Shown: positions 46,742 to 64,000 of the stretch, piece after piece | Numbering within the stretch: the first letter of the stretch is position 1 | How the letters are laid out: every line of letters starts with the position of its first letter | Source of the DNA: an uncultured Verrucomicrobiae bacterium | Lineage (GTDB): Bacteria; Verrucomicrobiota; Verrucomicrobiia; Chthoniobacterales; UBA10450 | DNA length: 64,000 bases | Assembly (NCBI GenBank): GCA_963834385.1 | Contig: CAWIBO010000005.1 | Location: forward strand, 64,001-128,000 | Direction of reading: 5' to 3' | Translations under genes and position numbers: made by a program | Notes under the pieces: model-generated | Told to the model about the DNA's origin: nothing | The model's database searches: none | The model's input: only the letters and a program-made list of their open reading frames with translations

Positions 46742-47157
46742 GCCGGGCAGACGGACGCGAGCAGCTCGCGCACGCAGTTGATCAGCCCGCCGACCGGGAA
46801 CGGTTTGACGAGGTATTTCACTTCCTGCGTCTCGAGGAATTCCTTGATCGCGGGGTCGGCGGCATGGCCGGTAATGAAGATGAAGCGATCAGCCAGGCCG
46901 GGGCGCAGCTCGGTCGCCTTGAAGAAGAGTTCGTCGCCGCGCAGCCGGGGCATCATCAGGTCGCAGACGACCGCGTCGTATTCGTTCACCTTGATCTTGA
47001 GCAGGGCCTCGGCGCCGTCGTAGGCCAGGTCGACCAGAAAATTCTCATCCGCCAGGATCCATTGCAGGGCGGAGGCGAGCTGACGGTCGTCGTCCACGAG
47101 GAGAATGGCCTTGAGGGAGAGACTGTTGACGGGTGAATCGAGCGAGGATTGGTCCAT
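46738..47157 (-). CDS. Single-domain response regulator
   Basis: LVDDD, CDLMMPRLRG, FITG, LVKPF. Confidence 0.88.
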   Translation of the reverse strand: MDQSSLDSPVNSLSLKAILLVDDDRQLASALQWILADENFLVDLAYDGAEALLKIKVNEYDAVVCDLMMPRLRGDELFFKATELRPGLADRFIFITGHAADPAIKEFLETQEVKYLVKPFPVGGLINCVRELLASVCPA

Positions 47158-47276
47158 GGCAGGTGCCACTCTCCAAGCAGTCCCGATGCCACGGGGGGAA
47201 GAACGATGGGGGCGCCGGGTTCCCGGGTCCCATTTTTCGGGCTTTCCTGCCTGCGCAATTGAGGGAATTCTGCGGC

Positions 47277-48587
47277 GTGAACAGGTTCACCCTCATCGGC
47301 AGCGGTCTGGCCGGTGGGCTGCTGGCCGGGTTCCTCGGCCGGCGGGGCGACGAGGTGGCCTTGTACGAGCGCCGGCCCGATCCCGAGGCCGGCAACCAGG
47401 TCGGCGGCCGGTCCATCAACCTGGCCCTCTCCGCGCGCGGACTGCATGCGCTCAGCCAGCTTGGTTTGGCCGATGCCGTCCTCGCGCAGGCCATCGCCAT
47501 GCGGGGCCGGATGATCCACGACAAGGATGGCACCCTCCATTTTTCCGCCTACGACCGCGACCCGGCGAAGCACATCAACTCGATCGGGCGCGGCGCGCTC
47601 AACGCCGCCGTCCTGGAAGCCGCGCGCCAATTTCCGAATGTGCGGGTCGAGTTCAACCAGCGCTGCACCGAGGTCGACCTCGACCGACCGTCCGCGACCC
47701 TGCGCGCGACCGGGAGCGAGACGGAGAAAATCGTCACGGGCGATGCGATCATCGGCGTGGATGGCGCGTTCTCGGCCGTGCGCGGCGCGATGCAGCGCCT
47801 GAACCGCTTTGAGTACAGCCAGAGCTACCTGGCGCACGGCTACAAGGAGCTGACCATCCCGCCGGGTCCCGCCGGTCAGTGGCGCATGGAAAAAAACGCG
47901 CTCCATATCTGGCCGCGCCGGAGTTTCATGATGATTGCCCTGCCCAACCCGGACGGTTCCTTCACCTGCACGCTCTTCTGGGAGTTCGAGGGTCCGCGCA
48001 GCTTCGCCGCCATGCGTGGTGACGACGATGTTCGCCGGTTTTTCGACGAGGAGTTTCCGGACGCGGTCCCGTTGATGCCCGACTTGCTGACCGATTTTCG
48101 CGAGAACCCGACCGGATCGCTGGTGACGATTCGTTGCGAACCGTGGCATTACCAGGACAAGGTGGCGCTGGTGGGCGATGCCGCGCATGCGGTGGTCCCG
48201 TTCTACGGCCAGGGGATGAACGCGGCTTTCGAGGACTGCGTGGTGCTCGATGAATGCCTCGCGGAATTTTCCGGCGATCGGGGCCGCGCGTTCGCCGAGT
48301 ATTCGCGGCGGCGAAAGGAGAACGCCGACGCGCTGGCGGACCTGGCGGTGCAGAATTTCATCGAGATGCGCGACAAAACCGCCTCGCGCGTTTTCCGGTC
48401 GAAGAAAAGGATCGATCATTTCCTGGAGGGCGTCCTGCCGGGGATTTATCTGCCGCTCTACACCATGGTGTCGTTTACCCGGATCCCGTATGCCGAGGCG
48501 GCCCGGCGGGCCCGGTTGCAGGATCGCCTGCTCTACGGCGGCCTGGCCGCGTTGCTGCTGCTGGCGTTCGCGTTCCTGATCTTTTAG
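47277..48587 (+). CDS. kmo: Kynurenine 3-monooxygenase
   Basis: GRSINLALSARG, NALHIWPR, MMIALPN.DGSFTCTLF, GDAAHAVVPFYGQGMN. Confidence 0.95.
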   Translation: MNRFTLIGSGLAGGLLAGFLGRRGDEVALYERRPDPEAGNQVGGRSINLALSARGLHALSQLGLADAVLAQAIAMRGRMIHDKDGTLHFSAYDRDPAKHINSIGRGALNAAVLEAARQFPNVRVEFNQRCTEVDLDRPSATLRATGSETEKIVTGDAIIGVDGAFSAVRGAMQRLNRFEYSQSYLAHGYKELTIPPGPAGQWRMEKNALHIWPRRSFMMIALPNPDGSFTCTLFWEFEGPRSFAAMRGDDDVRRFFDEEFPDAVPLMPDLLTDFRENPTGSLVTIRCEPWHYQDKVALVGDAAHAVVPFYGQGMNAAFEDCVVLDECLAEFSGDRGRAFAEYSRRRKENADALADLAVQNFIEMRDKTASRVFRSKKRIDHFLEGVLPGIYLPLYTMVSFTRIPYAEAARRARLQDRLLYGGLAALLLLAFAFLIF

Positions 48588-50510: not shown

Positions 50511-50717
50511 TTAGGAAAGGAGGAAAGCAGGATGGGGACGGTAGCGTGAGTCGTGAATGGTGAATCGTGAATCGTGAATCGTGGAGGATCGAGCGCCGCT
50601 CACGGACCACGGTCGGTACCGCCATCCTCCATGTTCAATTCTCCATCCTCGTCTTCTCCTGGTTTCCTGGTTTCCAAATTAGAGCCCTTCTTCCTGTTTT
50701 CCTGCTTTCCTGATTCA
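50509..50717 (+). repeat. Mosaic repeat element H
   Basis: Inverted TTCCTG module, (CGTGAAT)n, ATCCTCC and TTCCTG modules. Confidence 0.85.
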
Positions 50718-53124
50718 TCCTGTTCCCCGAATGAGGTCGTCCACGGCGCGTTGAGTTCCCTGTTCCGAGGCCGGCGTGATGCGGATGACGACGCTTTTGC
50801 TGGCGGGGGTGTTGCTGCGAAGGGCGGTGTGGTTGAGCGGCACAAGGACGTTGGCTTCCGGGAAATAGGTCGCGGCGCAGCGCCGGGGAATCTGGAAGGG
50901 CGCGACCATGAACCCGCGCGCGACGCGTTCTTCGCCCTCGTGAATGCTGGTGAGATCGACCACCTGTCCCTGTTGCAGGCCGGCGGCGGAAACATCCTCG
51001 GGGTTCAGGAAAACCACCCGGCGTCCGCGATAAATGCCGCGGTAGCGATCGTTCAACCCATAAATCGTGGTGTTAAACTGGTCGTGACTCCGGATCGACA
51101 TCATGAGGTATTCCCCTTCGCCGAGGGAGACGGAGTCGAGCGGCGAAACAATGAAGCGGGCCTTGCCGGTGGCGGTGTGAAACCGGCGATGATCGCGCGC
51201 GGCATTGGGCAGATAGAAAACATCGCGTCGGATGCGCTCATTGAAGTTCTCGAACCCCGGCACCACCCGGGCGATGTGATCGCGGATCCGGTCGTAATTC
51301 CCCGCCAGCTCCTCCCAGTGCACCGTGCTCCGACCATCCAGGGTGGCGCGGGCCAGGCCGGCCACGATGGCGGGTTCGCTGCGCAAATTCCCCGAGGCCG
51401 GCTCGAGGTGTCCGCGGGACGGGCTGATGATGCCCATGGAATCCTCCACGGTGACGAATTGTTCGCCCGAGATCTGCCGATCAATCTCGGCCCGTCCGAG
51501 GCACGGCAGGATGAGGGCGATTTCGCCGGTGACCAGGTGTGACCGGTTCAACTTGGTCGAGACGTGCGCGGTGACCCGGCAGGATTGCAGGGCGCGGGCG
51601 GTGCCGTCGGTATCGGGCGCCGCGGAGAGAAAATTGCCGCCGAGACCGAAGAAGAAGCGGATGGCGCCGGCCTGCATCCGGCGAATGGTGTCGACGGTAT
51701 CGACCCCGTGCGCGCGCGGCGGATTGAAAGCGAACTCGGCTCCGAGCCGGTCGAGAAAAGCGTCGCTCATCTTTTCCCAGATCCCCATGGTCCGGTCGCC
51801 CTGGACGTTGGAATGTCCGCGGACGGGACAAGGCCCGGCGCCGGGGCGTCCGATGTGGCCGCCGAGAAGGAGAAAGTTCATCACCTCCTGAATGGTGGCG
51901 ACGGCGTTGCGGTGCTGGGTCAGGCCCATGGCCCAGCAACAAATGATGCGCTTCGCCTTCATCGCGATGTCGGCGGCGGCCCGGATCTGGTCGCGGGTGA
52001 GACCGCTCCCGGAGAGGATTTCGGGCCAGGGCGTGGCGCGGGCGTGCTCGAGGTATTCCGCAAACCCGGAGGTGTGTTCGCGGATGAACTCGTGGTCAAA
52101 GACCGTCCCGGGGGCTCGTTCCTCGGCTTCGATCATCTCCCTGACCATCCCGCGGAGGGCCGCGAGATCGCCGTTGATCCGGATGGGCAGCCAGAGATCG
52201 CTGATGGCGCGTGCCGCGGTTCAGCAGCATTTTCGCCGGATACTTGAGGATGTTGCGATACTCCTGCGGGTTCGGGTTGACCACCTCCATCAGGCCGGGT
52301 TCGGGGAGGGGATTGAGAGCGACGATGCGGGCTCCGTTTCGTTTTGCCTCCTCCAGCGTGCTCAGCATGCGCGGATGATTGGTGCCCGGGTTTTGTCCCA
52401 GGATGAAGATCGCGTCCGCCTGCGCGAAATCCGAGAGCTTCACGCAGCCTTTGCCGACGCCGATGCTTTCGCCGAGCGCTTCGCCGCTCGATTCGTGGCA
52501 CATGTTCGAGCAGTCCGGCAGGTTGTTGGTGCCGAATTGGCGCACGAAGAGCTGGTAAAGAAACGCGGCCTCGTTGCTGGTGCGTCCGCTGGTGTAGAAG
52601 GCCGCCGCGTCCGGCGACGGCAGCGCGTTTAGCTCCCGGCCGAGAAGGGCAAAGGCTTCATCCCACGCGATTGGCTGGTAATGCGAAGCGCCGGCCCGTT
52701 TCACCATGGGCTCCACCAGGCGCCCCTGTTGCTCGAGCCAGTAATCGCTCCGCTCCCGCAGGTCGGCCAGGCTGTGCTCGCGAAAAAATTCCGCGCCGAT
52801 GTGCCGTCGCGTCGTTTCGCTCGCGATGGCCTTGGCGCCGTTCTCGCAGAATTCAAAGATGTTGCGATCGTGATCGGGACTCGGCCAGGCGCAGCTCTGG
52901 CAATCGAAGCCCTCCTTCTTGTTCACTTTCAGCCAGGTGCCGAGGCCGCGGAGCAGGCCGGTCTCGCGGGTGGCAAAGCGCAGGCTTTCGATGATTGCCT
53001 TGAGCCCGGCCGCGACGCGATGCGGTTCCTTCTGCCGCGGGGCGGTGGTTTCCGCCGGGGTGCGACCGGAGGCAAGACCTTTCGCGTGGTCTCCCGCCCT
53101 TTCCCGGCCGTTGGCGTCCTGCAT
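50715..53124 (-). CDS. FdhF/YdeP-family molybdopterin oxidoreductase (frameshift near 52200)
   Basis: GFDCQSCAWP, EFCENGAKA, NNLPDCSNMCHE, RGHSNVQGDRTMG, RSHDQFNTTIYG. Confidence 0.92.
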
Positions 53125-53290
53125 TCGGAAAGAATATCTGAAAATAGGAAGATGTGGAGGGCGGGGAGGCAGGAGCGGCGGCCGGGCGGGGTGGAAGAGG
53201 CTTGCGCTCAGGCCCGGCGGTCCGGTAACCTGAGGAAGCAATCCGGCGGCGCGAGGGCGGAGCATCAACCGCTAACCGAAAGGAGTTCGT

Positions 53291-54637
53291 ATGAATCGTA
53301 TCTTCCTGCGCAGAATATGGATGGTCGCTCTGACCCTGCTTGTCCTGGGGGTCGCCCCGGGGCGCGTGCCTGCGGACGAGACCTGTTCCTCGCCTTATCT
53401 CGCCCGCATCGATGGGCAGGAAGAGTTTGTCTACGTCTGGACGTTGGGCGTCGAGGGTCTGGGCGATGGCTCGGACAAATTGGTGACCGTCGACGTCCGG
53501 CCGGGCTCGGAGACCTACGGAAAGGTGATTCATCAGCATTCCGTGGGCGGAAGGAACGAGGCGCACCACGGCGGGTTTACCGATGATCGCCGCCAGCTCT
53601 GGCTGGCCGGGCTGGAGAGCAGCCGGATTTTCATCTACGACGTCTACGGCGACCCGGCGAAACCGAAGTTCGTGCGGAGCATTGACGATCTGGCGGCGGC
53701 GAGCGGCGGGGCGATCGGACCGCATGGTGTGTATGCGCTCCCGGGACGCGTGTTGATCCCCTGTCTCTCCAACGCGAAGGAGAAGAACGGGCGGACGGCG
53801 CTGGTGGAATACGGGAACGACGGCAACTTCATCGCGACCCATTGGCTGCCGACAAAGGGATCAGCGGAAGGTCTGGCCGGGGCGGAGCATGCCGATGGCT
53901 ACGGTTATGACGCGCGGGTCCTGCCCCGCAAAAACCTGCTCCTGACCTCCTCTTTCACCGGCTGGAACAATTACACGCGGGATTTTGGCGCCCTGACGGC
54001 GGATGCGGCAGCGATGAAACAGTTCGGGAACACCATGGTGGCGTGGAATTTTCACACACGGAAACCGGAGAAGGTTTTCCATGTCCCCGGCGCGCCCCTT
54101 GAGATTCGCTGGGCCTGGGGGCGGGACCACAATTATGCCTTCACCGCGGCGGCGCTCACCTCCAGGCTCTGGCTGATCTATGAGGACAATAAGGGAGAAT
54201 GGCAGGCGAGCGAGACGGGCACGGTGGGAAACACGGAAACGGGCGTCCTGCCGGTCGACATCAGCCTGAGCGCCGATGACAAGACGCTCTTTGTCAGTTG
54301 TTTCGCCGACGGCAAATGCCGGGTTTACGATGTCTCCGATCCGCACCGGCCGAAACAGATCCTGGAGAAGGAGATCGGGCGCCAGGTCAACATGGTCTCG
54401 CAAAGCTGGGACGGGAAACGTCTCTACTTCACCAGTTCCGTCCTGGCGAGATGGGACAAGAAAGGGAAGGACAACGACCAGTTTCTGCGCGCCTACACCT
54501 GGAACGGGAAGGATCTGACGCCGACGTTTGCGCTTGATTTCAATGGTTTGAAGCTGGGCCGGCCCCACCACATGCTCTTTGGCGCGCGCAAGCTGGGCGC
54601 ACCGCGGCTGGACGCGAACGTGGCCTCGAACCAGTGA
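53291..54637 (+). CDS. mtoX: SBP56-family protein, probable methanethiol oxidase
   Basis: Signal peptide then DETCSSPY, EAHHGG, GPHG, FTGW, SWDGKRLYFTSS..ARWDK, PHHM. Confidence 0.85.
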   Translation: MNRIFLRRIWMVALTLLVLGVAPGRVPADETCSSPYLARIDGQEEFVYVWTLGVEGLGDGSDKLVTVDVRPGSETYGKVIHQHSVGGRNEAHHGGFTDDRRQLWLAGLESSRIFIYDVYGDPAKPKFVRSIDDLAAASGGAIGPHGVYALPGRVLIPCLSNAKEKNGRTALVEYGNDGNFIATHWLPTKGSAEGLAGAEHADGYGYDARVLPRKNLLLTSSFTGWNNYTRDFGALTADAAAMKQFGNTMVAWNFHTRKPEKVFHVPGAPLEIRWAWGRDHNYAFTAAALTSRLWLIYEDNKGEWQASETGTVGNTETGVLPVDISLSADDKTLFVSCFADGKCRVYDVSDPHRPKQILEKEIGRQVNMVSQSWDGKRLYFTSSVLARWDKKGKDNDQFLRAYTWNGKDLTPTFALDFNGLKLGRPHHMLFGARKLGAPRLDANVASNQ

Positions 54638-55329
54638 TTCTTTTTCCTCTATCCGCCCGGGCGGGCACGGTGGCCATGGGCCTGGCGCTCGCGCTGGGAG
54701 TCGCCGCCCAGGCCGGCGCGGAAGATGCGGGGAGCGGACGTCACCCGGATTTCGATTACGATCCGCCCTCGCCCGGTAGCTACGAACTTCCGGTGATCAA
54801 GACGGCCGCGGACGCTCCGTTGCGGGATGTCAGCAGCGCGCCGGTGCGGCTCCGGGAACTGACGGGCGGGCATGTCACCGTCCTGAGTTTCATCTACACG
54901 CGCTGCGGCGATGCGCGCGCCTGCCCCTACGCCTCGAGCGTTTTGAATGATCTGCACCAGGTCACCCGTGGCGATCCCGCGCTGGCCCGGAGCTTGCGCC
55001 TGCTTAGCGTCAGCTTTGATCCGGCGCACGATACCCCGGAACGCATGGCGGCCTACGGCGAGGCGGTGCGCGACGCCGGGGGCGGATGTGATTGGCGCTT
55101 CCTCACGCCGCGTTCCCTGGCCGATCTCCCCGGCCTGCTCATGGCCTACAATCAGAGCGTCAACAAAGCCACAGCCTCGCAACGGGCTGCCGGGCCGCTC
55201 TTTCACACCCTGCGCGTTTACCTCATCGACCGCGAACGCCGCATCCGAAACATCTACAGCTCGGGCACGCTCGACGGGCGCCTCCTCCTCTCCGACATCC
55301 GCACTCTTCTTCTCGAAGAGGTGCGGTAA
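54634..55329 (+). CDS. SCO/SenC copper chaperone family protein
   Basis: FIYTRC....ACP, SFDPAHDTPE, HTLRVYLID. Confidence 0.9.
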   Translation: MILFPLSARAGTVAMGLALALGVAAQAGAEDAGSGRHPDFDYDPPSPGSYELPVIKTAADAPLRDVSSAPVRLRELTGGHVTVLSFIYTRCGDARACPYASSVLNDLHQVTRGDPALARSLRLLSVSFDPAHDTPERMAAYGEAVRDAGGGCDWRFLTPRSLADLPGLLMAYNQSVNKATASQRAAGPLFHTLRVYLIDRERRIRNIYSSGTLDGRLLLSDIRTLLLEEVR

Positions 55330-55719: not shown

Positions 55720-56400
55720 TCAATCGCGCCGGCGCGGTTCGCCCCAGCCGCCAGCGCCGCGATAGCTGCGAGCCCCAGTCAGGGCGAGCTGCTCGAGGCC
55801 GGGATCGAACTCGCGCGTCTTGCACCAGATCTTGAGCTCGTCGCCAAACCCGGCTTGGACGCAATCGTAACAGGCGGGAACCTCGTTTGCGTAACCGCCA
55901 TAAGTGGCGACGCGGGTCCCGAGGGGCCGACCGCCCAGTTGCGCGGCGAGATGCCGCGTGTAGCGGGAACGCAACCCCGGTTCGAGCGGAATTGTCCGGT
56001 CGATCACCGGGCCGCCAAATGAATGTTCCGTGAACGGATTGAAGAGATAGAACGCGTCGTAGTGGGAAAAATCGACCTCGAGCATGTTGGCGTGGCGGAA
56101 GGTGACGTTCTCCAGGCGGAGCTGGGTGGCTGTGGCCCGTGCGATCCTAATCAACTCTGCCCGTTGCTCGATTCCGGTGAAATGGCCGGCGGTGGACGCT
56201 GCCCCGGCGAGACAGAACTTGCCCGGGCCGCAGCCCACGTCGAGGACACGGCAGCCGGGGCGATCGACCAGCTCGCGCGCCGCCGCCGTGGCCACTTCCA
56301 GGGGAGTCCAAAAAGTCTTCGAGAGGGCGCGGAGATGTTCCGGATAGAGCGCATCGAACGATCGGTCGTCGACCGGAAAGGCTGTTTCCGTCGTGGTCAC
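55720..56400 (-). CDS. Class I SAM-dependent methyltransferase
   Basis: VLDVGCGPGKF, FYLFNPF. Confidence 0.88.
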   Translation of the reverse strand: MTTTETAFPVDDRSFDALYPEHLRALSKTFWTPLEVATAAARELVDRPGCRVLDVGCGPGKFCLAGAASTAGHFTGIEQRAELIRIARATATQLRLENVTFRHANMLEVDFSHYDAFYLFNPFTEHSFGGPVIDRTIPLEPGLRSRYTRHLAAQLGGRPLGTRVATYGGYANEVPACYDCVQAGFGDELKIWCKTREFDPGLEQLALTGARSYRGAGGWGEPRRRD

Positions 56401-57449
56401 GGCAGACGAAGGAATTCGCGCACGGTCCCGGCGAGCAGTTGCTCCGCCGTGCCGGGCTCCAGGTCTCTCATCGACTCAATCAGCGCCCCCGGCCGTGCTT
56501 CGCCGAGCGGGAACGGGTAATCCGAGCCGAGGGCGATGCGTTCCGCGCCGAAAAGCTCCAGGAGCATGCGGAGCGCCCCGGCGTCGTGCACCAGCGAATC
56601 GACATAAAAGTGCGCCGGGCGAGAGACGCCCCCTACCTCCCGCCGCAGGTAGGAGCGGGGATTCACCTGGTTATCGACGGCAACAAGGTCGGGCCGCACG
56701 TGGAAGGCGTGCTCGAGCCGGCCGATGGTAAAAGGGAAGCCGCCGCCGCCGTGCGCGAAGGCGACGCGCAACTTCGGGAAACGCTCGAAGACGCCGCCGA
56801 ACATCATGCTGCAGATGGCGAGCGCGGTCTCGGCCGGCATCCCGACCAGCCAGGGCAGCCAGTAATTTGGCATGCGTTCCTTCCCGACCATGTCCCACGG
56901 GTGCACGAAGATGGCGGCGTCCAGCTCCTGCGCCGCGCTCCAGAAGACATCGAGGGCGCGATCATCCAGGTTGCGGCACCCGCCCGGATGGCAATGAACA
57001 TTGGCGTCGAGGTGCGACCCGATCTGTGCGCCCCGCAGGCCGAGTTCGCGCACGGCCCGCTCCAGTTCGCGCGCCGCCCGTTCCGGGTCCTGCAGCGGCA
57101 CCGTGGCCAGGCCGGCGAATTTTTCGGGGAATGCGCCGACGATTTCCGCGAGGTGATCGTTCAGGAAGCGCGCGAGATCAGCGGCGTCGTCTGGTTTGGC
57201 CCAGTAGGAGAACATCACCGGCACCGTCGACAGGACCTGCATGGCCACACCGGTTTCCTGCATCTCTTCGCAGCGCCGTTCCGGGTCCCACGCGTTCTCG
57301 CCGATCTCCCGGAAGAACCGGTCACCGATCATCATCCGCGCGCAGCACGGTTTGTGATGCTCGAGGCGGACGAACCCGGGATAGCCATAGCGGGCGTCGA
57401 GATCCGGCCATTCCCGCGGGAGAATGTGCGTATGGAGATCGATTTTCAC
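56397..57449 (-). CDS. nbaD: 2-amino-3-carboxymuconate-6-semialdehyde decarboxylase (ACMSD)
   Basis: IDLHTH, LSTVPVMFSYW, FVHPWDM, WLPWLVGMPAET, GSDYPFPLGE. Confidence 0.93.
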   Translation of the reverse strand: MKIDLHTHILPREWPDLDARYGYPGFVRLEHHKPCCARMMIGDRFFREIGENAWDPERRCEEMQETGVAMQVLSTVPVMFSYWAKPDDAADLARFLNDHLAEIVGAFPEKFAGLATVPLQDPERAARELERAVRELGLRGAQIGSHLDANVHCHPGGCRNLDDRALDVFWSAAQELDAAIFVHPWDMVGKERMPNYWLPWLVGMPAETALAICSMMFGGVFERFPKLRVAFAHGGGGFPFTIGRLEHAFHVRPDLVAVDNQVNPRSYLRREVGGVSRPAHFYVDSLVHDAGALRMLLELFGAERIALGSDYPFPLGEARPGALIESMRDLEPGTAEQLLAGTVREFLRLP

Positions 57450-57551: not shown

Positions 57552-57632
57552 ATGATCACTCGATCCGATTCCCAGCTCCAGCTTGCGGCCGGCACGGTCC
57601 GCCCGGGAATCGCCGGATACTGGCGTCGCTAA
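57552..57632 (+). CDS. Candidate Trp leader peptide MITRSDSQLQLAAGTVRPGIAGYWRR
   Basis: 26-codon ORF ending YWRR-stop, 116 nt upstream of kynU-trpDCFBA. Confidence 0.5.
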   Translation: MITRSDSQLQLAAGTVRPGIAGYWRR

Positions 57633-57744
57633 CGCCAGCCCGCAGAGAAGCGTCCGTCCGCCTGGTGGACGCGAACCACTGCCCAGAGACCATCCGCCGC
57701 GGCCGGCCCGGCTGCGGGAACTGCAATCCTTTGTCCCGTTTTTT
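57620..57744 (+). promoter_or_regulatory. Candidate Trp attenuator
   Basis: CTGGCGT/ACGCCAG hairpin over the Trp codon; CCCGCAG/CTGCGGG antiterminator; CGGGA...TCCCG followed by T6. Confidence 0.5.
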
Positions 57745-57748
57745 ACCC

Positions 57749-59041
57749 ATGTCATCCATTCCATCCTTATCCGCCGCCCTCGAGCTCGACAGCGCCGATC
57801 CGCTGGCCGGGTTTCGCGAGCGCTTTTATCTCCCGCCCGGCCAGATCTACCTCGACGGTAATTCGCTGGGCCTCCTTTCCCGCGAGGCCGAGCAAACGCT
57901 CATGGAGGTCTTCGGGAAATGGAAAACCGGCGGCATCAGCGGCTGGCTCGAGGGTGAGTCGCCCTGGTTCACCATGGCCGAGACCCTGGCCGCGCGCGTC
58001 GCTCCCCTCGTCGGCGCCGCGGCGGATGAGGTGGCCCTGGCCAATTCCATGACGATCAACCTGCACCAGCTCCTGGCCACGCTCTATCGCCCGGAGGCGC
58101 CGCGGAAGAAGGTGTTGATCGACGCGCACAGTTTTCCGACTGATCGCTACGCGCTCCGCAGTCATCTGCGTCTGCGCGGGCTCGACCCGGAAGAACACAT
58201 CGTGATCGCGCCGGCGGGCCGCTCGCGGTTCCTGGACGAGGATGAACTGGTGCGCGCGCTGGCGCAGCCCGGCCTGCAAATGGCCTTGTTGCCTTCCGTG
58301 GTTTACACCACCGGGCAGTTGCTCGATCTGCCGCGGCTTTGCCGGGTGGCCCGCGAGCACGACGTCATCATCGGGCTCGATCTCTCGCACTCTGTCGGCA
58401 TCCTGCCGCACGCACTGGATGAATGGGGCGCCGATTTTGCCGGGTGGGGCCACTATAAATGGTTGAACGCCGGGCCTGGCTCTGTCGCCGGCCTTTATCT
58501 GAACCGCCGGCATTTTGCCGCCAACGGCATGGTGGACGCCGGGCTGGCCGGCTGGTGGAGCGTGCACAAGGAAAGCATGTTCAACATGTCGGACGAATTT
58601 TTTCCGGGTCTCGGGGCTTCGGCGCTGCAGATCGGGACGCCGGCCCTGTTGAGCATGGCGCCCATCGGCGGCGCCTTGCGCCCGGTGGAGGAGGCCGGGA
58701 TCGAGCGGATCCGGGCCAAATCGATTGCGCTGACGGAGTTCATCATGTCGGCGGTCGAGCAGGAGCTTGCCGGGGAGGGTTTCCGTTTGGGGACGCCCCG
58801 CGAAGCAAAACGCCGGGGCGGTCATGTCTCCGTGCGGCATGAGCAGGCGCAGGCACTTTCGCTGGCCTTGCGTGAGCGCGGCGTTGTGCCCGATTTCCGC
58901 AAGCCGGATGTCATCCGTTTCGCGCCATCGCCGCTCTACAACACCTTTGCGGAATGCTGGGAAGCGATCGCGATCCTGAAAGAGATCGCGACCAGCGGGT
59001 CCCATGAGGCCTTCAGCGCCGCGCGCAGCCTGGTCACATGA
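57749..59041 (+). CDS. kynU: Kynureninase
   Basis: IYLDGNSLGL, DLSHSVG, YKWLNAGPG, RGGHVS, DFRKPDVIR. Confidence 0.95.
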   Translation: MSSIPSLSAALELDSADPLAGFRERFYLPPGQIYLDGNSLGLLSREAEQTLMEVFGKWKTGGISGWLEGESPWFTMAETLAARVAPLVGAAADEVALANSMTINLHQLLATLYRPEAPRKKVLIDAHSFPTDRYALRSHLRLRGLDPEEHIVIAPAGRSRFLDEDELVRALAQPGLQMALLPSVVYTTGQLLDLPRLCRVAREHDVIIGLDLSHSVGILPHALDEWGADFAGWGHYKWLNAGPGSVAGLYLNRRHFAANGMVDAGLAGWWSVHKESMFNMSDEFFPGLGASALQIGTPALLSMAPIGGALRPVEEAGIERIRAKSIALTEFIMSAVEQELAGEGFRLGTPREAKRRGGHVSVRHEQAQALSLALRERGVVPDFRKPDVIRFAPSPLYNTFAECWEAIAILKEIATSGSHEAFSAARSLVT

Positions 59042-60150
59042 GCATGGAAAGCAAACGCCGGCCGGCCTGGCTGCTCCCGACACCGGCGCGCCGTGACGAA
59101 GGCGAAGCGGCGCTGCCGGTGCGATCGCTCCTGGTGCAGTTGATGCAGGGGAAGGACCTGTCGCGGGATGAGGCCGCCCTTCTTTTCGGCGCAGCCATGG
59201 ATGAACGGGCCAGCGACGCGCAGATCGGCGCGGCCTTGGTGGCGCTGGCCGTGAAAGGCGAGACGGTGGAGGAACTCACCGGCATGGCGGAAGCCATGCG
59301 GGCGCGCGCCGTCCGCATCCGGACGCGCCATGAACGGTTCGTCGATACCGCCGGGACGGGATCGAGTCATGCCAAGACGTTCAACGTCTCGACCGCGGCC
59401 GCCTTTGTCTGTTCCGGGGCGGGTCTGCCGGTGGCCAAGCATGGGAGCCGGGCCGCCACCAGCCTCTCGGGCAGCGCGGATGTTCTCGGCGAACTTGGGG
59501 TGAATGTGCAGACCGACGCGGCCACGGCCGCACGCTGTCTCGATGAGATCGGCATCTGTTTCCTTTTTGCGCCTCTTTATCACCGGGCCACCGCCCGCGT
59601 CGCCGGGATTCGGCGCGAACTCGGCGTGCACACCACCTTTAATCTTCTCGGTCCGCTGACCAACCCGGCGGGCGCCCCCTTCCAGGTCATCGGGGTCTGG
59701 CATGAAGCGCTGCTCGAGCCGCTGGCGCACACGCTCCTCGCCCTCGGGACAAAGCGCGCCTGGGTGGTCCATGGGCGCGACGGACTGGACGAGATCACCA
59801 CGAGCGGACCGACGTTGGTCGCGGAGGTTCGGGAGGGAACGGTCCAGCGCCGCACGGTAGTTCCGGCTGATTTTGGGCTGGCGACTTCTTCTTCCCTGGC
59901 GGAACTCCGCGGAGGCACTCCCCGTGACAACGCCGGGCTGATCCGCGCCGTTCTTGCGGGTCAGGACGGAGTGCGTGTCGAAGGGGCGCGCGACCTGATC
60001 GTGGCGAACGCGGCCGCGGCGCTTTTCGTGGGCGGCCACGCGGAAACACTCCCGGCGGCTGCTGAGCTCGCACGCGAAAGCATCCGCGCGGGCGCCGCCC
60101 TCACAAAGGTCGAACAATTAATTCAATGGACCGGGGGCAAGGCGTCATGA
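59038..60150 (+). CDS. trpD: Anthranilate phosphoribosyltransferase
   Basis: DTAGTG, FNVST, AKHG, NLLGPLTNP, DGLDE. Confidence 0.96.
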   Translation: MSMESKRRPAWLLPTPARRDEGEAALPVRSLLVQLMQGKDLSRDEAALLFGAAMDERASDAQIGAALVALAVKGETVEELTGMAEAMRARAVRIRTRHERFVDTAGTGSSHAKTFNVSTAAAFVCSGAGLPVAKHGSRAATSLSGSADVLGELGVNVQTDAATAARCLDEIGICFLFAPLYHRATARVAGIRRELGVHTTFNLLGPLTNPAGAPFQVIGVWHEALLEPLAHTLLALGTKRAWVVHGRDGLDEITTSGPTLVAEVREGTVQRRTVVPADFGLATSSSLAELRGGTPRDNAGLIRAVLAGQDGVRVEGARDLIVANAAAALFVGGHAETLPAAAELARESIRAGAALTKVEQLIQWTGGKAS

Positions 60151-60956
60151 GCGATTTTCTCTCCAAAATCCTGGCCGCGCGGCGGGCCCGCGTGGCGAGG
60201 GATTTTTCGCCCGCGGTGCGCCCCTCCTGGCGGGAAAGGGCTGCGTTCGCCCGGGCCCGGCGGGACCATTTCTGTTTGCGCACGGCCCTGGCGGCCAGCA
60301 CGGGCCTGATCGCCGAGTTCAAACGCCGTTCGCCTTCCCGCGGTTTGATCCGGCCGGAGGCCGACCCTGCCCTCGTCGCCGCGCAATATGCCGAGGGCGG
60401 CGCCTGTGCCGTCTCCGTCCTGACCGAGCCGGATTTTTTTCAGGGCTCGCTTGCCGATCTCAGGGCGGCACGCGAAGCGGTTTCCCTGCCGGTTTTGCGC
60501 AAGGATTTTATCGTCGATGAAGTGCAGATCGACGAGGCCGCGGTGGCGGGCGCGGAGGCGGTGCTCCTGATCGTGGCCGCACTGGGCGATGGGGAGCTCG
60601 AACGTTTCCGTCGCCGGGCCGAGGATGACCTTGGCCTGGATGCGCTGGTCGAGGTGCACACGCCGGAAGAGATGCGTCGCGCCGCCGGGAGCGGAGCCAG
60701 TCTGATCGGGGTAAACAACCGGAACCTGTCGACCTTTGCCGTCTCTCTCGACACCTCGGAGGAACTGGCGCTGCTCGCGCCCGAAGGATCCGTGCTCGTG
60801 AGCGAGAGCGGGATTCATGGCCGCGCCGACGTTGAACGCCTGCGTGCTCTCGGGTATCGCGGGTTCCTCGTCGGTGAAGCGCTCATGCGCTCCGATCATC
60901 CCGCGGCGCTCCTGCGATCTCTTGGCGGCGCGGTGAATGGGAGCGTGCACCGATGA
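60147..60956 (+). CDS. trpC: Indole-3-glycerol phosphate synthase
   Basis: IAEFKRRSPSRG, SVLTE, LRKDF, GVNNRNL, SESGI. Confidence 0.96.
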   Translation: MSDFLSKILAARRARVARDFSPAVRPSWRERAAFARARRDHFCLRTALAASTGLIAEFKRRSPSRGLIRPEADPALVAAQYAEGGACAVSVLTEPDFFQGSLADLRAAREAVSLPVLRKDFIVDEVQIDEAAVAGAEAVLLIVAALGDGELERFRRRAEDDLGLDALVEVHTPEEMRRAAGSGASLIGVNNRNLSTFAVSLDTSEELALLAPEGSVLVSESGIHGRADVERLRALGYRGFLVGEALMRSDHPAALLRSLGGAVNGSVHR

Positions 60957-61615
60957 GAACGGGCAAGGTGGGAGTAAAGGTTTGTGGCGTCACCACGGTT
61001 GAAGACGCCCTCATCTGCGGGGGCGCCGGCGTGGACTGGATCGGGTTGAACTTCTCGGCCACGAGCGTCCGGCAGGTGCCGCTGGACCGGGCACGGGACA
61101 TCACCCGGGCCGTGCGGGCGAAGCATGCCGGGATGCGTTTCATCGGCCTTTTCGTGAACCAACCGGCGGAGGAGATCGAAACGATCGTGAACACTCTCAT
61201 GCTCGACGGGGTGCAGTTGCACGGGCGCGAGACGCCCTCCGAGGTCGCCGCCATCCGCGCGCCGTGGGTGATCAAGGCGTTGCCTGTCGCCCCCGGCTTC
61301 AACCCGGAGTCTGTCCGGGCCTACCCTTGCGATGCGATCCTGCTCGACGCCTGGAGCCCGACCGCTGCCGGCGGCACGGGTGCGAGTTTCCCGTGGGAGA
61401 TCGCGGCCGCCGTTCGTCCCCTCGTCCGATGTTTGCTCCTGGCGGGCGGGCTCCACGACGGCAACGTTGCGCGCGCCATTGCCGCCGCGCGCCCCGACCT
61501 GGTCGATGTCTGCAGTGGCGTGGAATCAGCGCCGGGGCGCAAGGACGGCGAGAAGGTGCGCCGTTTTGTCGAGGAGACGCGCGCCGCGCTGCAACCGGAG
61601 GGAGTCGCGTCATGA
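60953..61615 (+). CDS. trpF: Phosphoribosylanthranilate isomerase
   Basis: VKVCG, QLHG, GGTG, LAGGL, DVCSGVE. Confidence 0.95.
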
Positions 61616-62829
61616 CAAAATTTCGTTCCGAGCCGGATGCGGCCGGCTTTTGGGGACCGTTCGGTGGTCGTTTTGTGGCGGAGACGCTGATGGCGCCATT
61701 GGAGGAACTGACAAAGGCGTTTCGCGAAGCGCAGGCGGATGCCGGGTTTCTGCGAGAACTCGATGGATTGCGGCGCGAATACACGGGGCGCCCGACCCCC
61801 CTGGGATTTGCCGCGCGCCTGACGGAGCACGCCGGAGGGGCGCGCATTTATCTCAAGCGGGAGGATCTGCTGCACACCGGGGCGCACAAGATCAACAACG
61901 CGCTCGGGCAGGGCCTGCTCGCGCGACGCATGGGAAAACGCCGGATTATCGCCGAGACCGGGGCGGGCCAGCATGGCGTGGCCACGGCGACCGTTTGTTC
62001 GCTGCTCGGTCTCGAGTGCGTCATTTACATGGGAGAAGAGGATGCGCGGCGCCAGGAACCGAATCTCCATCGCATGCGCCTCCTCGGGGCCGAGGTGCGC
62101 CTGGTTTCGCAGGGATCGCGCACGCTCAAGGATGCCATCAATGAGGCGTTGCGCGACTGGGTCACGCACGCCCGCGAGACTTACTATCTTTTGGGGAGCG
62201 CGCTCGGTCCGCATCCGTATCCGCTGATGGTGCGGGAGTTCCAGAAGGTGATCGGGCAGGAGACGCGGGCGCAGTTCCGGGCCCGCGTTCGGCGCAATCC
62301 GGATGCGCTCGTTGCCTGCGTCGGCGGCGGCTCCAACGCGATCGGATTCTTCCACGCTTTTCTCTCCGATACCGGCGTCCGCCTGCTCGGCGTCGAGGCC
62401 GGTGGAAAGGGGAGCGGGCTTGGAGAACATGCGGCCCGTTTCCGCAAGCGGGGCGGGGGACGCCCCGGCGTTTTGCACGGCACCCACAGTTACGTCCTGC
62501 AGGACAAGGCCGGGCAGATTGCGAGCACGCATTCGATCTCCGCCGGGCTCGATTATCCGGCGATCGGCCCGGAGCACGCCTTCCTGCGCGACCGGAAGCG
62601 CGTCGAGTATGTCGCCGTGGGTGACCGCGCCGCTCTTCAGGCCTTGGAACTTCTTGCCCGGCTGGAAGGAATCATTCCCGCGCTCGAATCGGCCCATGCG
62701 GTCGCGCAGGCTCTCCTGCTCGCGCCCACCATGTCGCGGCGCCAGGCCATCGTGGTCAATCTCTCCGGCCGGGGCGACAAGGATCTCGGCGCCCTCTCTG
62801 CGCCGCCGGTCAGGACGGGCCGGTTATGA
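61612..62829 (+). CDS. trpB: Tryptophan synthase beta chain
   Basis: [46 protein letters not shown]. Confidence 0.97.
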
Positions 62830-63584
62830 GCGTTTTGCGTGACAGCTTTGCCGCCGTGCGCGCTTCCGGACGTCACGGGGTCATTCCGTTCCTGGTCGCA
62901 GGCGACCCCGACCTCGCCACCACCGGCAGGCTGGTGCGGGAACTGAGCGCGTTGCAGCCCGTCGCGATCGAGATCGGTGTTCCCTTCAGTGACCCATCGG
63001 CCGACGGCCCGGTGATCCAGCGCGCTTCCGGCCGGGCGCTGCGTCGCGGCACCACCCTGGCGAACGTGCTCGAGCATTTGAAAAAGACGCGAACAGCCGC
63101 GCGGGCTCCCCTGGTTCTGTTCACCTATTACAATCCGTTGTTGCAGCTTGGTCTGGCCAACTTCGCCGGGAAAGCTGCGCGCGCGGGCGTGGCCGGTGTC
63201 CTGGTGGTCGACCTTCCGGCCGAGGCGGCCGGCGCCCTGCGGGGCCATCTTTCCCGGAAAGGCCTCGACCTTATCCTCCTGGTCGCGCCGACCACCTCGG
63301 CGGATCGGCTTCGACAGATTGCGCGGACCGCTTCCGGTTTTATCTACGCCGTGGCTCGCACGGGGGTGACCGGTAACACCCGCGGCCACTCCGACGAATC
63401 CGCGGAACTGGTAGAGCGTCTTCGTGCTCTGACGTCTCTCCCTGTGGCGGTCGGCTTCGGGATCAGGACCCGGGCCCGGGTTGGGCAGGTCTGCCGTTAC
63501 GCCGACGCCGCGGTGGTCGGCTCCGCCCTCGTGGAAACGATTGAGAAAGCCTCGGCCGGTCCCCAAAAGGCCCGACGGCGGTGA
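62826..63584 (+). CDS. trpA: Tryptophan synthase alpha chain
   Basis: [35 protein letters not shown]. Confidence 0.96.
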
Positions 63585-63623
63585 CGTCGTCGCGCAGGCG
63601 ATGCGGTATGCGCGGACGCTCTT

Positions 63624-64000
63624 CTAATCGCGGAACGGCTTCACCGGCTCCGGTTTCGGCACTTTGTGTCCGCAGTTTTTGCAGGTGCGCCGGGCGTCGT
63701 CGTTCCAGAAATCGAGCATGGCCTTGCTGAACGCCTGGACGATGTCGGCACAATCGAAATCGATGTCTTCCACCAGCGCCTCGCATTTTTCGCAGTAAAA
63801 GATGACGTGCTCGTGCTCGCCGGCCGGTCGGCGGCGCTCCACCACCAGCCCGAGCGTGTCGGGCGGGCGCACCGGCGCGTGCGGGACATTCGGTGGAATG
63901 AAAAAGGTTTCACCCTCGCGCACGAGATGATCGACGATGTGATCGCCCTCGCGGATGCGCACCTTGATATCGCCTTTCAGCTGGTGGAAAAACTCCTCGG
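63624..64000 (-). CDS. nbaC: 3-hydroxyanthranilate 3,4-dioxygenase (5' part beyond the window)
   Basis: EEFFHQLKGD, PPNVPHAP.RP, VVERRR, CEKC...CKNC rubredoxin-like site. Confidence 0.9.
   Translation of the reverse strand, partial: EEFFHQLKGDIKVRIREGDHIVDHLVREGETFFIPPNVPHAPVRPPDTLGLVVERRRPAGEHEHVIFYCEKCEALVEDIDFDCADIVQAFSKAMLDFWNDDARRTCKNCGHKVPKPEPVKPFRD

Follow-up and report, generated by a model that had tools for sequence, protein, structure and literature searches.

A kynureninase-headed trpDCFBA operon, probably for tryptophan recapture, in uncultured Chthoniobacterales

A route from kynurenine to tryptophan has already been described in Chlamydia caviae, Chlamydia felis and Chlamydia pecorum, and as of 2014 kynU was known in no trp operon but the chlamydial one, where it was read as a counter to host IDO (PMC3937554). 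Here we describe a kynU-trpDCFBA operon from an uncultured Verrucomicrobiae bacterium of the order Chthoniobacterales, carried on a 64,000-nucleotide stretch (the window) of contig CAWIBO010000005.1 in GenBank assembly GCA_963834385.1. A sequence-only reading of the window had proposed that kynureninase occupies the position of trpEG and that the operon is a salvage route leading from kynurenine through anthranilate to tryptophan. This proposal is supported by the selectivity motif of the enzyme, by the recurrence of the arrangement, by the failure to find trpEG, and by a Trp leader shared with biosynthetic operons. The operon is real and conserved and most likely anabolic, and it is probable that it acts as a tryptophan-recapture unit in which the kynureninase KynU2 would make anthranilate from kynurenine and TrpD, TrpF, TrpC, TrpA and TrpB would carry it onward to tryptophan, no anthranilate synthase having been found.

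The locus resembles the chlamydial operon in combining trpDCFBA with the lack of trpEG, in holding kynU inside the operon, in the predicted supply of anthranilate from kynurenine, and in the presence of W and T at the selectivity positions of the kynureninase (C. pecorum KynU reads W-S-T). It differs in gene order, since kynU is the first gene here and the second-last in Chlamydia, and in the position of prsA, which lies outside the operon (the phosphoribosyl pyrophosphate (PRPP) synthase gene is on contig C2). No trpR was seen at the head of the operon in the 300 bp upstream, the only region in which it was sought; these hold a leader ORF (open reading frame) and a divergent ACMSD gene, and control here would be by the predicted leader peptide. 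Unlike Chlamydia, which use host kynurenine, the genome has its own TDO, KynB, KMO and second KynU. C. pecorum KynU is 47% identical to the second kynureninase of this genome, kynU1, and 37% identical to kynU2, the gene in the operon; common descent of KynU2 with chlamydial KynU was rejected (AU (approximately unbiased) test against one clade, p=0.0006, on a 38-row quick tree with C. pecorum only). Because chlamydial KynU belongs to another clade, the Chthoniobacterales route is likely to be of independent origin, and the W and T shared by the two operon enzymes look like convergence. A literature search found no paper on this operon or its leader in Verrucomicrobiota, most subscription journals and all supplements lying outside that search, and a pathway table in a supplement could hold one.

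Operon structure, leader and sister operon

All six ORFs, kynU2-trpD-trpC-trpF-trpB-trpA, lie on the + strand where the sequence-only reading had placed them, and the ATGA overlaps that it reported are present at 5/5 junctions. Scores exceed the curated NCBIfam cut-offs for kynureninase (320 vs 246), TrpD (387 vs 199), TrpC (278 vs 260), TrpB (587 vs 392) and TrpA (241 vs 102); TrpF scores under its cut-off (184 vs 215), yet it is clearly homologous (E 3e-54). The outer bounds of the unit, given earlier as 57749 and 63584, did not stand. The unit begins further upstream, with the leader ORF, and trpA probably ends at 63627 rather than 63584, because a neighbouring frame supplies a C-terminus resembling that of trpA in relatives; a one-base assembly slip is likely.

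In ribosome-mediated trp attenuation, the leader peptide TrpL carries a Trp codon near its end and is followed by alternative hairpins. The leader ORF upstream of kynU2 (57552-57632) encodes MITRSDSQLQLAAGTVRPGIAGYWRR and ends Y-W-R-R-stop. A short ORF ending W-R, W-W or W-C-R precedes 11/16 kynU-trp loci and 11/11 aroF-trpGE-trpD operons, the same leader type being present before 1/16 kynU2 copies without following trp genes and 0/5 other aroF genes (shuffle means 0.1-0.3; G135 and L111, with too little upstream DNA, are omitted from these counts). Across the 1659 long ORFs of the genome the loose pattern occurs upstream of 30 and the strict pattern, W-R-(R)-stop, upstream of 2, of which the second is the terminal part of a long gene lying upstream. 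Across loci the Trp codon does not change, whereas the adjoining Tyr and Arg codons vary synonymously.

The likeness to TrpL attenuation lies in a conserved short ORF with a Trp codon before trp genes and in predicted alternative hairpins, which can be drawn in the downstream spacer (57633-57748). The differences are that leaders of kynU loci hold a single Trp codon, that no clear U-rich terminator is seen, and that Rfam gave no match upstream of kynU2. A promoter scan at the locus returned 0 sites. Because the same leader type precedes plainly biosynthetic operons, we infer Trp-dependent attenuation of the kynU-trp operon, and the shared leader gives added support to an anabolic role. In the sister operons (L101-L112), leaders upstream of aroF end W-R, W-W-R or W-W-W and have in common a conserved hairpin, after which comes a run of pyrimidines.

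These sister operons, aroF-trpG-trpE-trpDCFBA in other Chthoniobacterales, share with the kynU operon the gene order from trpD on, the TrpD/TrpB clade and the upstream Trp leader; they differ in that aroF-trpG-trpE occupies the position of kynU2. Among 16 loci picked for trpE-trpD adjacency (L101-L116), the order trpE-trpD-trpC continues as far as the contigs reach in all 16, and aroF-trpG-trpE-trpD is present in 12. In FastTree trees with midpoint rooting (45 rows for TrpD, 40 for TrpB), the proteins from the two kinds of operon cluster together, apart from the dispersed native genes of the family. An operon with trpGE (G120) is placed among the kynU operons; it may be an ancestral form that persisted, or it may have reverted. 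Based on these comparisons, it is likely that kynU2 replaced aroF-trpG-trpE in place, within an ordinary trp operon whose leader lay on one side and trpD on the other.

Distribution of kynU2 among relatives

The adjacency of kynU and trpD is not unique to this genome, as its proponents had asked to see checked, and spans 7 genera with this genome counted. kynU2 was found at 73-78% identity in 26/150 sampled family genomes; 24 of these were examined with wide flanks, in which the arrangements are kynU-trpD (8), kynU-trpC (3), kynU-trpF (1) and trpFBA-kynU (1). Further kynU-trpD loci came from a genome-collection scan (L146, L154 and L158) and from 1/5 metagenome loci. All 23/23 genome-collection loci are titled Chthoniobacterales, Verrucomicrobiae or Verrucomicrobiota, in a scan that reaches close relatives only.

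Among 400 genomes of the phylum (2 of this family), 8 kynU2 matches at 42-54% were found, 6 of them beside kynB, and the flanks retrieved for the 8 hold no trp genes; the 5 genomes tested have TrpE-like genes in 5/5 cases and TDO in 0/5. Catabolic kynA-kynU-kynB clusters (TDO, kynureninase, arylformamidase) are alike in having a KynU of the same W/G/T clade, and unlike in having neither trp genes nearby nor a Trp leader and in keeping TrpE-like genes in the 5 tested genomes. In another Verrucomicrobiae family, 5 genomes (L200-L204) place a W/G/T kynU 0.4-4 kb from a divergent DAHP synthase gene, with kynB in 4 and TDO found in 0/5. The W/G/T clade also includes Mammaliicoccus and Haloarchaeobius enzymes; the best 120 protein-search matches of KynU2 are close relatives only, and no donor of kynU2 or of the operon is among them; of the 50%-cluster representatives consulted, most have no taxon attached.

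In the family sample, kynU2 is commoner in genomes without trpE. Both trpB and trpC are present in 112/151 family genomes, of which 17 have kynU2 without trpE, 9 kynU2 with trpE, 84 trpE only and 2 neither, so that kynU2 occurs in 17/19 trpE-less vs 9/93 trpE-bearing genomes; it occurs in 0/33 genomes lacking both trpB and trpC. Weak chorismate-domain matches in G025, G049 and G083 were scored as not trpE, and a fragment in G019 was scored as trpE. Without three unpublished genomes (G135, G002 and G007) the four counts become 16, 9, 82 and 2, kynU-trpD is found in 7/23 relatives, and the tree rows of G135 are also affected. Fisher's test on this table (p 8e-12) is not relied on, being too strong since kin are non-independent.

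The principal alternative is that the trp genes salvage environmental anthranilate and that kynU2 is a passenger, a remnant of a catabolic TDO-kynU-kynB cluster into which the trp operon inserted. kynU2 does occur as TDO-kynU-kynB or kynU-kynB without trp genes, the order kynU2-trpCFBA-kynB in G004 and G058 resembles an insertion into a kynU-kynB pair, and trpDCFBA sets without trpEG are reported in 38 gut genomes, with kynU unmentioned in the accessible part of that source (PMC9026213). We nonetheless regard this as unlikely: kynU2 sits between the Trp leader and trpD, and so shares the control of the operon, none of the 33 genomes that lack trpB and trpC carries it, and it is intact and coupled across the 7 genera.

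Three further observations concern the same genomes. Genus g6 has trpD, trpC and trpB in 14/14 genomes, trpE in 4 and kynU2 in 12, often unlinked from the trp genes, and here the kynurenine-to-Trp route may run from dispersed genes. Of the 33/151 family genomes without trpB and trpC, 11 retain native trpD, near nadC. TDO is present in 128/151 family genomes, as two mutually replacing types (E-values near 1e-77 and near 1e-38 against PF03301), nearly every genome having just one.

Kynureninase paralogues and anthranilate synthase

In the accessible part of one study, W102/T333 is the motif of kynurenine-preferring kynureninases and H102/N333 the hallmark of hydroxykynurenine-preferring ones, and kynureninase with kynurenine rescues E. 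coli trpE mutants, a rescue used to select kynureninases (PMC11329768). At the positions of human KYNU H102, S332 and N333, KynU2 reads W66, G296 and T297. It keeps the aspartate and lysine that serve pyridoxal phosphate (PLP), D211 and K237, and its best PDB match is a 7s3v chain with W and T at the selectivity positions. A search for a second kynU, suggested with the original proposal, found kynU1 (C5:45919), which reads H-S-N at those positions (H102/N333 in human numbering). The two motifs are constant, with W-G-T in 31/31 kynU2 relatives and H-S-N in 30/30 kynU1 sequences. Since kynU2 is of the W/T type and a separate H/N paralogue exists for 3-hydroxykynurenine, the motif points away from 3-hydroxykynurenine preference, and we infer that KynU2 prefers kynurenine.

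This bears on the possibility that kynU2 serves degradation or NAD synthesis via 3-hydroxykynurenine, together with the 3-hydroxyanthranilate 3,4-dioxygenase (HAO) and ACMSD genes that flank the operon and the KMO gene 10 kb off. Such a role appears highly improbable, given the separate H/S/N kynureninase at C5:45.9 kb and in 98/99 high-quality family genomes (TIGR01814), the placement of HAO and ACMSD on the opposite strand, and the presence of nadA and nadC.

Anthranilate synthase, first noted as missing from the window, was not found elsewhere in the genome either (89.6% complete; 2.91 Mb in 5 contigs). A domain search whose positive control was detected in 14/14 genomes gave no chorismate-binding domain, tblastn with TrpE of a relative gave no match at E 1e-3, and nothing resembling TrpG is among the 5 GATase matches, which from their sequences we take to be GuaA, PyrG, a CarA split into two and a C26-like protein. 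By tblastn, the operon copies are the sole trpD, trpC, trpF, trpB and trpA of the genome. The other genes whose presence was to be checked were found: chorismate synthase (aroC) for the shikimate pathway, TDO and a KynB homologue (C5:141229), and with them prephenate dehydratase, PRPP synthase (C2:247473-248393), nadA, nadC, KMO and the second kynureninase. An anthranilate-degrading route is conceivable, as one Rieske alpha subunit, with no NCBIfam name at E 1e-15, is present.

At the native trpEG site the flanking genes are 1354 bp apart, mid-contig, with no trp gene between them. Of 18 trpE loci fetched for comparison, 7 show both usual flanking genes, and 7/7 of these hold trpE-trpG-aroF across 3.9-7.0 kb; in 20 further genomes both flanks are visible in 13, with trpE at the native site in 0/13. 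The usual trpD site of the family is likewise empty here. That trpEG exists but fell outside the assembly, leaving an operon of ordinary biosynthesis, gains something from the incompleteness of the assembly, from the ability of trpE to sit away from its native site, and from G019, which has kynU-trpD plus a trpE fragment at a contig end. It is very unlikely all the same, as no TrpE is seen in 7/8 other kynU-trpD genomes (5 of them 91-97% complete), kynU2 is found in 17/19 trpE-less genomes, and the assembly covers the native site, which is empty. That the operon is decaying, an intermediate between kynU-trpDCFBA and kynU-kynB under no selection for a function, is hardly credible despite the shorter forms kynU-trpC (3), kynU-trpF (1) and trpFBA-kynU (1), as genomes with these forms have the missing genes at native sites and the operon here holds the genome's only trp genes, all with open frames.

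The sequence-only reading had named three points on which it could fail. As far as sequence can address them, the findings support the reading: the motif of KynU2 is of the kynurenine type, the adjacency of kynU2 and trpD recurs across 7 genera, and no trpEG was found here, its usual site being empty.

Proposed function and neighbouring genes

Several observations weigh against recapture as the function of the operon. The 9 genomes with both kynU2 and trpE and the 2 with neither depart from the pattern, and 11/24 relatives carry kynU2 with no trp gene in view, some in the catabolic layout TDO-kynU-kynB. An independent-pairs test, run on the KynU1 tree (75/151 genomes; 64 with trpB), yielded 6 pairs, of which 2.9 go the same way and 0.0 the opposite way (median p 0.25), in agreement with the direction of the counts but short of significance. 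The native trpEG site is also empty in G005, G058 and G019, where trpE sits elsewhere, so the empty site is support for trpEG loss and not proof. According to the accessible part of PMC11329768, W/T gives selectivity only alongside other residues and is not essential for kynurenine activity. The leader criterion was set only after the upstream sequences had been viewed, and the leader is missing from 5/16 kynU-trp loci and from one metagenome kynU-trpD locus. The leader region folds no better than shuffles (z -1.07), and it has no clear or consistent terminator or U-run, only one weak terminator-like site at 57713 (6 sites vs 5.1 expected in the regional scan). Last, since TDO and KynB are encoded in the same genome, the route would become a costly cycle if it were not regulated.

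Under the recapture reading, low charged tRNA-Trp would stall the ribosome at the leader Trp codon and the operon would be expressed, kynU2 having inherited trp operon control by taking the place of aroF-trpG-trpE. KynU2 would then convert kynurenine to anthranilate and alanine, and TrpD (with PRPP), TrpF, TrpC and TrpAB (with serine) would convert anthranilate to tryptophan. When Trp is plentiful, leader control would keep the recapture operon off, and the H/N paralogue KynU1 with KMO, HAO and ACMSD would handle the degradative branch. Kynurenine could be taken up from the surroundings or be supplied internally by TDO and KynB; with these enzymes the route can close into a cycle and run without outside kynurenine, and a net gain of Trp would be expected only from outside kynurenine or anthranilate.

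More tentatively, and with some doubt, a group of uncultured Chthoniobacterales may live as kynurenine-dependent Trp makers, which would have swapped anthranilate synthase for a kynurenine-specific kynureninase in a leader-controlled operon and would recover the ring from cross-fed kynurenine or from oxidised Trp in scavenged protein, the paralogues directing kynurenine either to rebuilding or to burning. Tryptophan recapture would then have arisen a second time, independently, outside any IDO-expressing host. An independent version in Chthoniobacterales would mark the route as a salvage strategy of general reach. On this view such genomes, although pathway tools would class them as Trp auxotrophs, should be able to use kynurenine or anthranilate, either of which, if the prediction holds, would be a concrete medium supplement for culturing such bacteria. 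A single genome also offers a natural W/T vs H/N kynureninase pair and a short leader with one Trp codon, and each could be tested in E. coli.

Table 1. Features of the kynU-trp locus and related genes in the window
Feature	Position	Strand	Basis
Predicted Trp leader peptide, 26 codons, ending G-Y-W-R-R-stop	57552..57632	+	Trp codon 57621-57623; codon comparison across loci
Spacer with predicted alternative hairpins and pyrimidine-rich tail	57633..57748	+	Fold, terminator and Rfam scans
kynU2, kynureninase with kynurenine-type motif W66/G296/T297 and PLP residues D211/K237	57749..59041	+	NCBIfam TIGR01814, alignment
trpD, anthranilate phosphoribosyltransferase; groups with operon copies, apart from the dispersed native clade of the family	59038..60150	+	NCBIfam, tree
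trpC, indole-3-glycerol phosphate synthase	60147..60956	+	NCBIfam
trpF, phosphoribosylanthranilate isomerase	60953..61615	+	E 3e-54, below cut-off
trpB, tryptophan synthase beta	61612..62829	+	NCBIfam, tree
trpA, tryptophan synthase alpha; frame open as far as 63584, gene probably extends to 63627	62826..63627	+	NCBIfam, neighbouring frame
ACMSD, divergent neighbour, catabolic kynurenine branch	56397..57449	-	E 5e-120 to solved ACMSD
HAO, convergent neighbour, continues past window end	63624..64000	-	NCBIfam
Kynurenine 3-monooxygenase (KMO), competing use of kynurenine; gene 47133-48587	47292..48341 (matched stretch)	+	E 6e-90 to solved KMO

The KMO gene (window 47133-48587, +) is located away from both kynureninase genes, about 10 kb from the operon. 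Between KMO and ACMSD, a gene at 50715-53268 (-), which we take to be molybdopterin oxidoreductase-like, is split across two frames; this break, like others at C5:129-139 kb and at C3:201.8 kb, hints at indels in the assembly. A methanethiol oxidase gene, MtoX (NF052453, 680 vs 650 bits), lies at window 53291-55329 (+) and is overlapped by a SCO1/SenC gene. Beyond the window, a purine degradation cluster at C5:128.7-141.9 kb, whose genes are presumably those for uricase, allantoicase, allantoinase, xanthine dehydrogenase and adenine deaminase, is followed by kynB.

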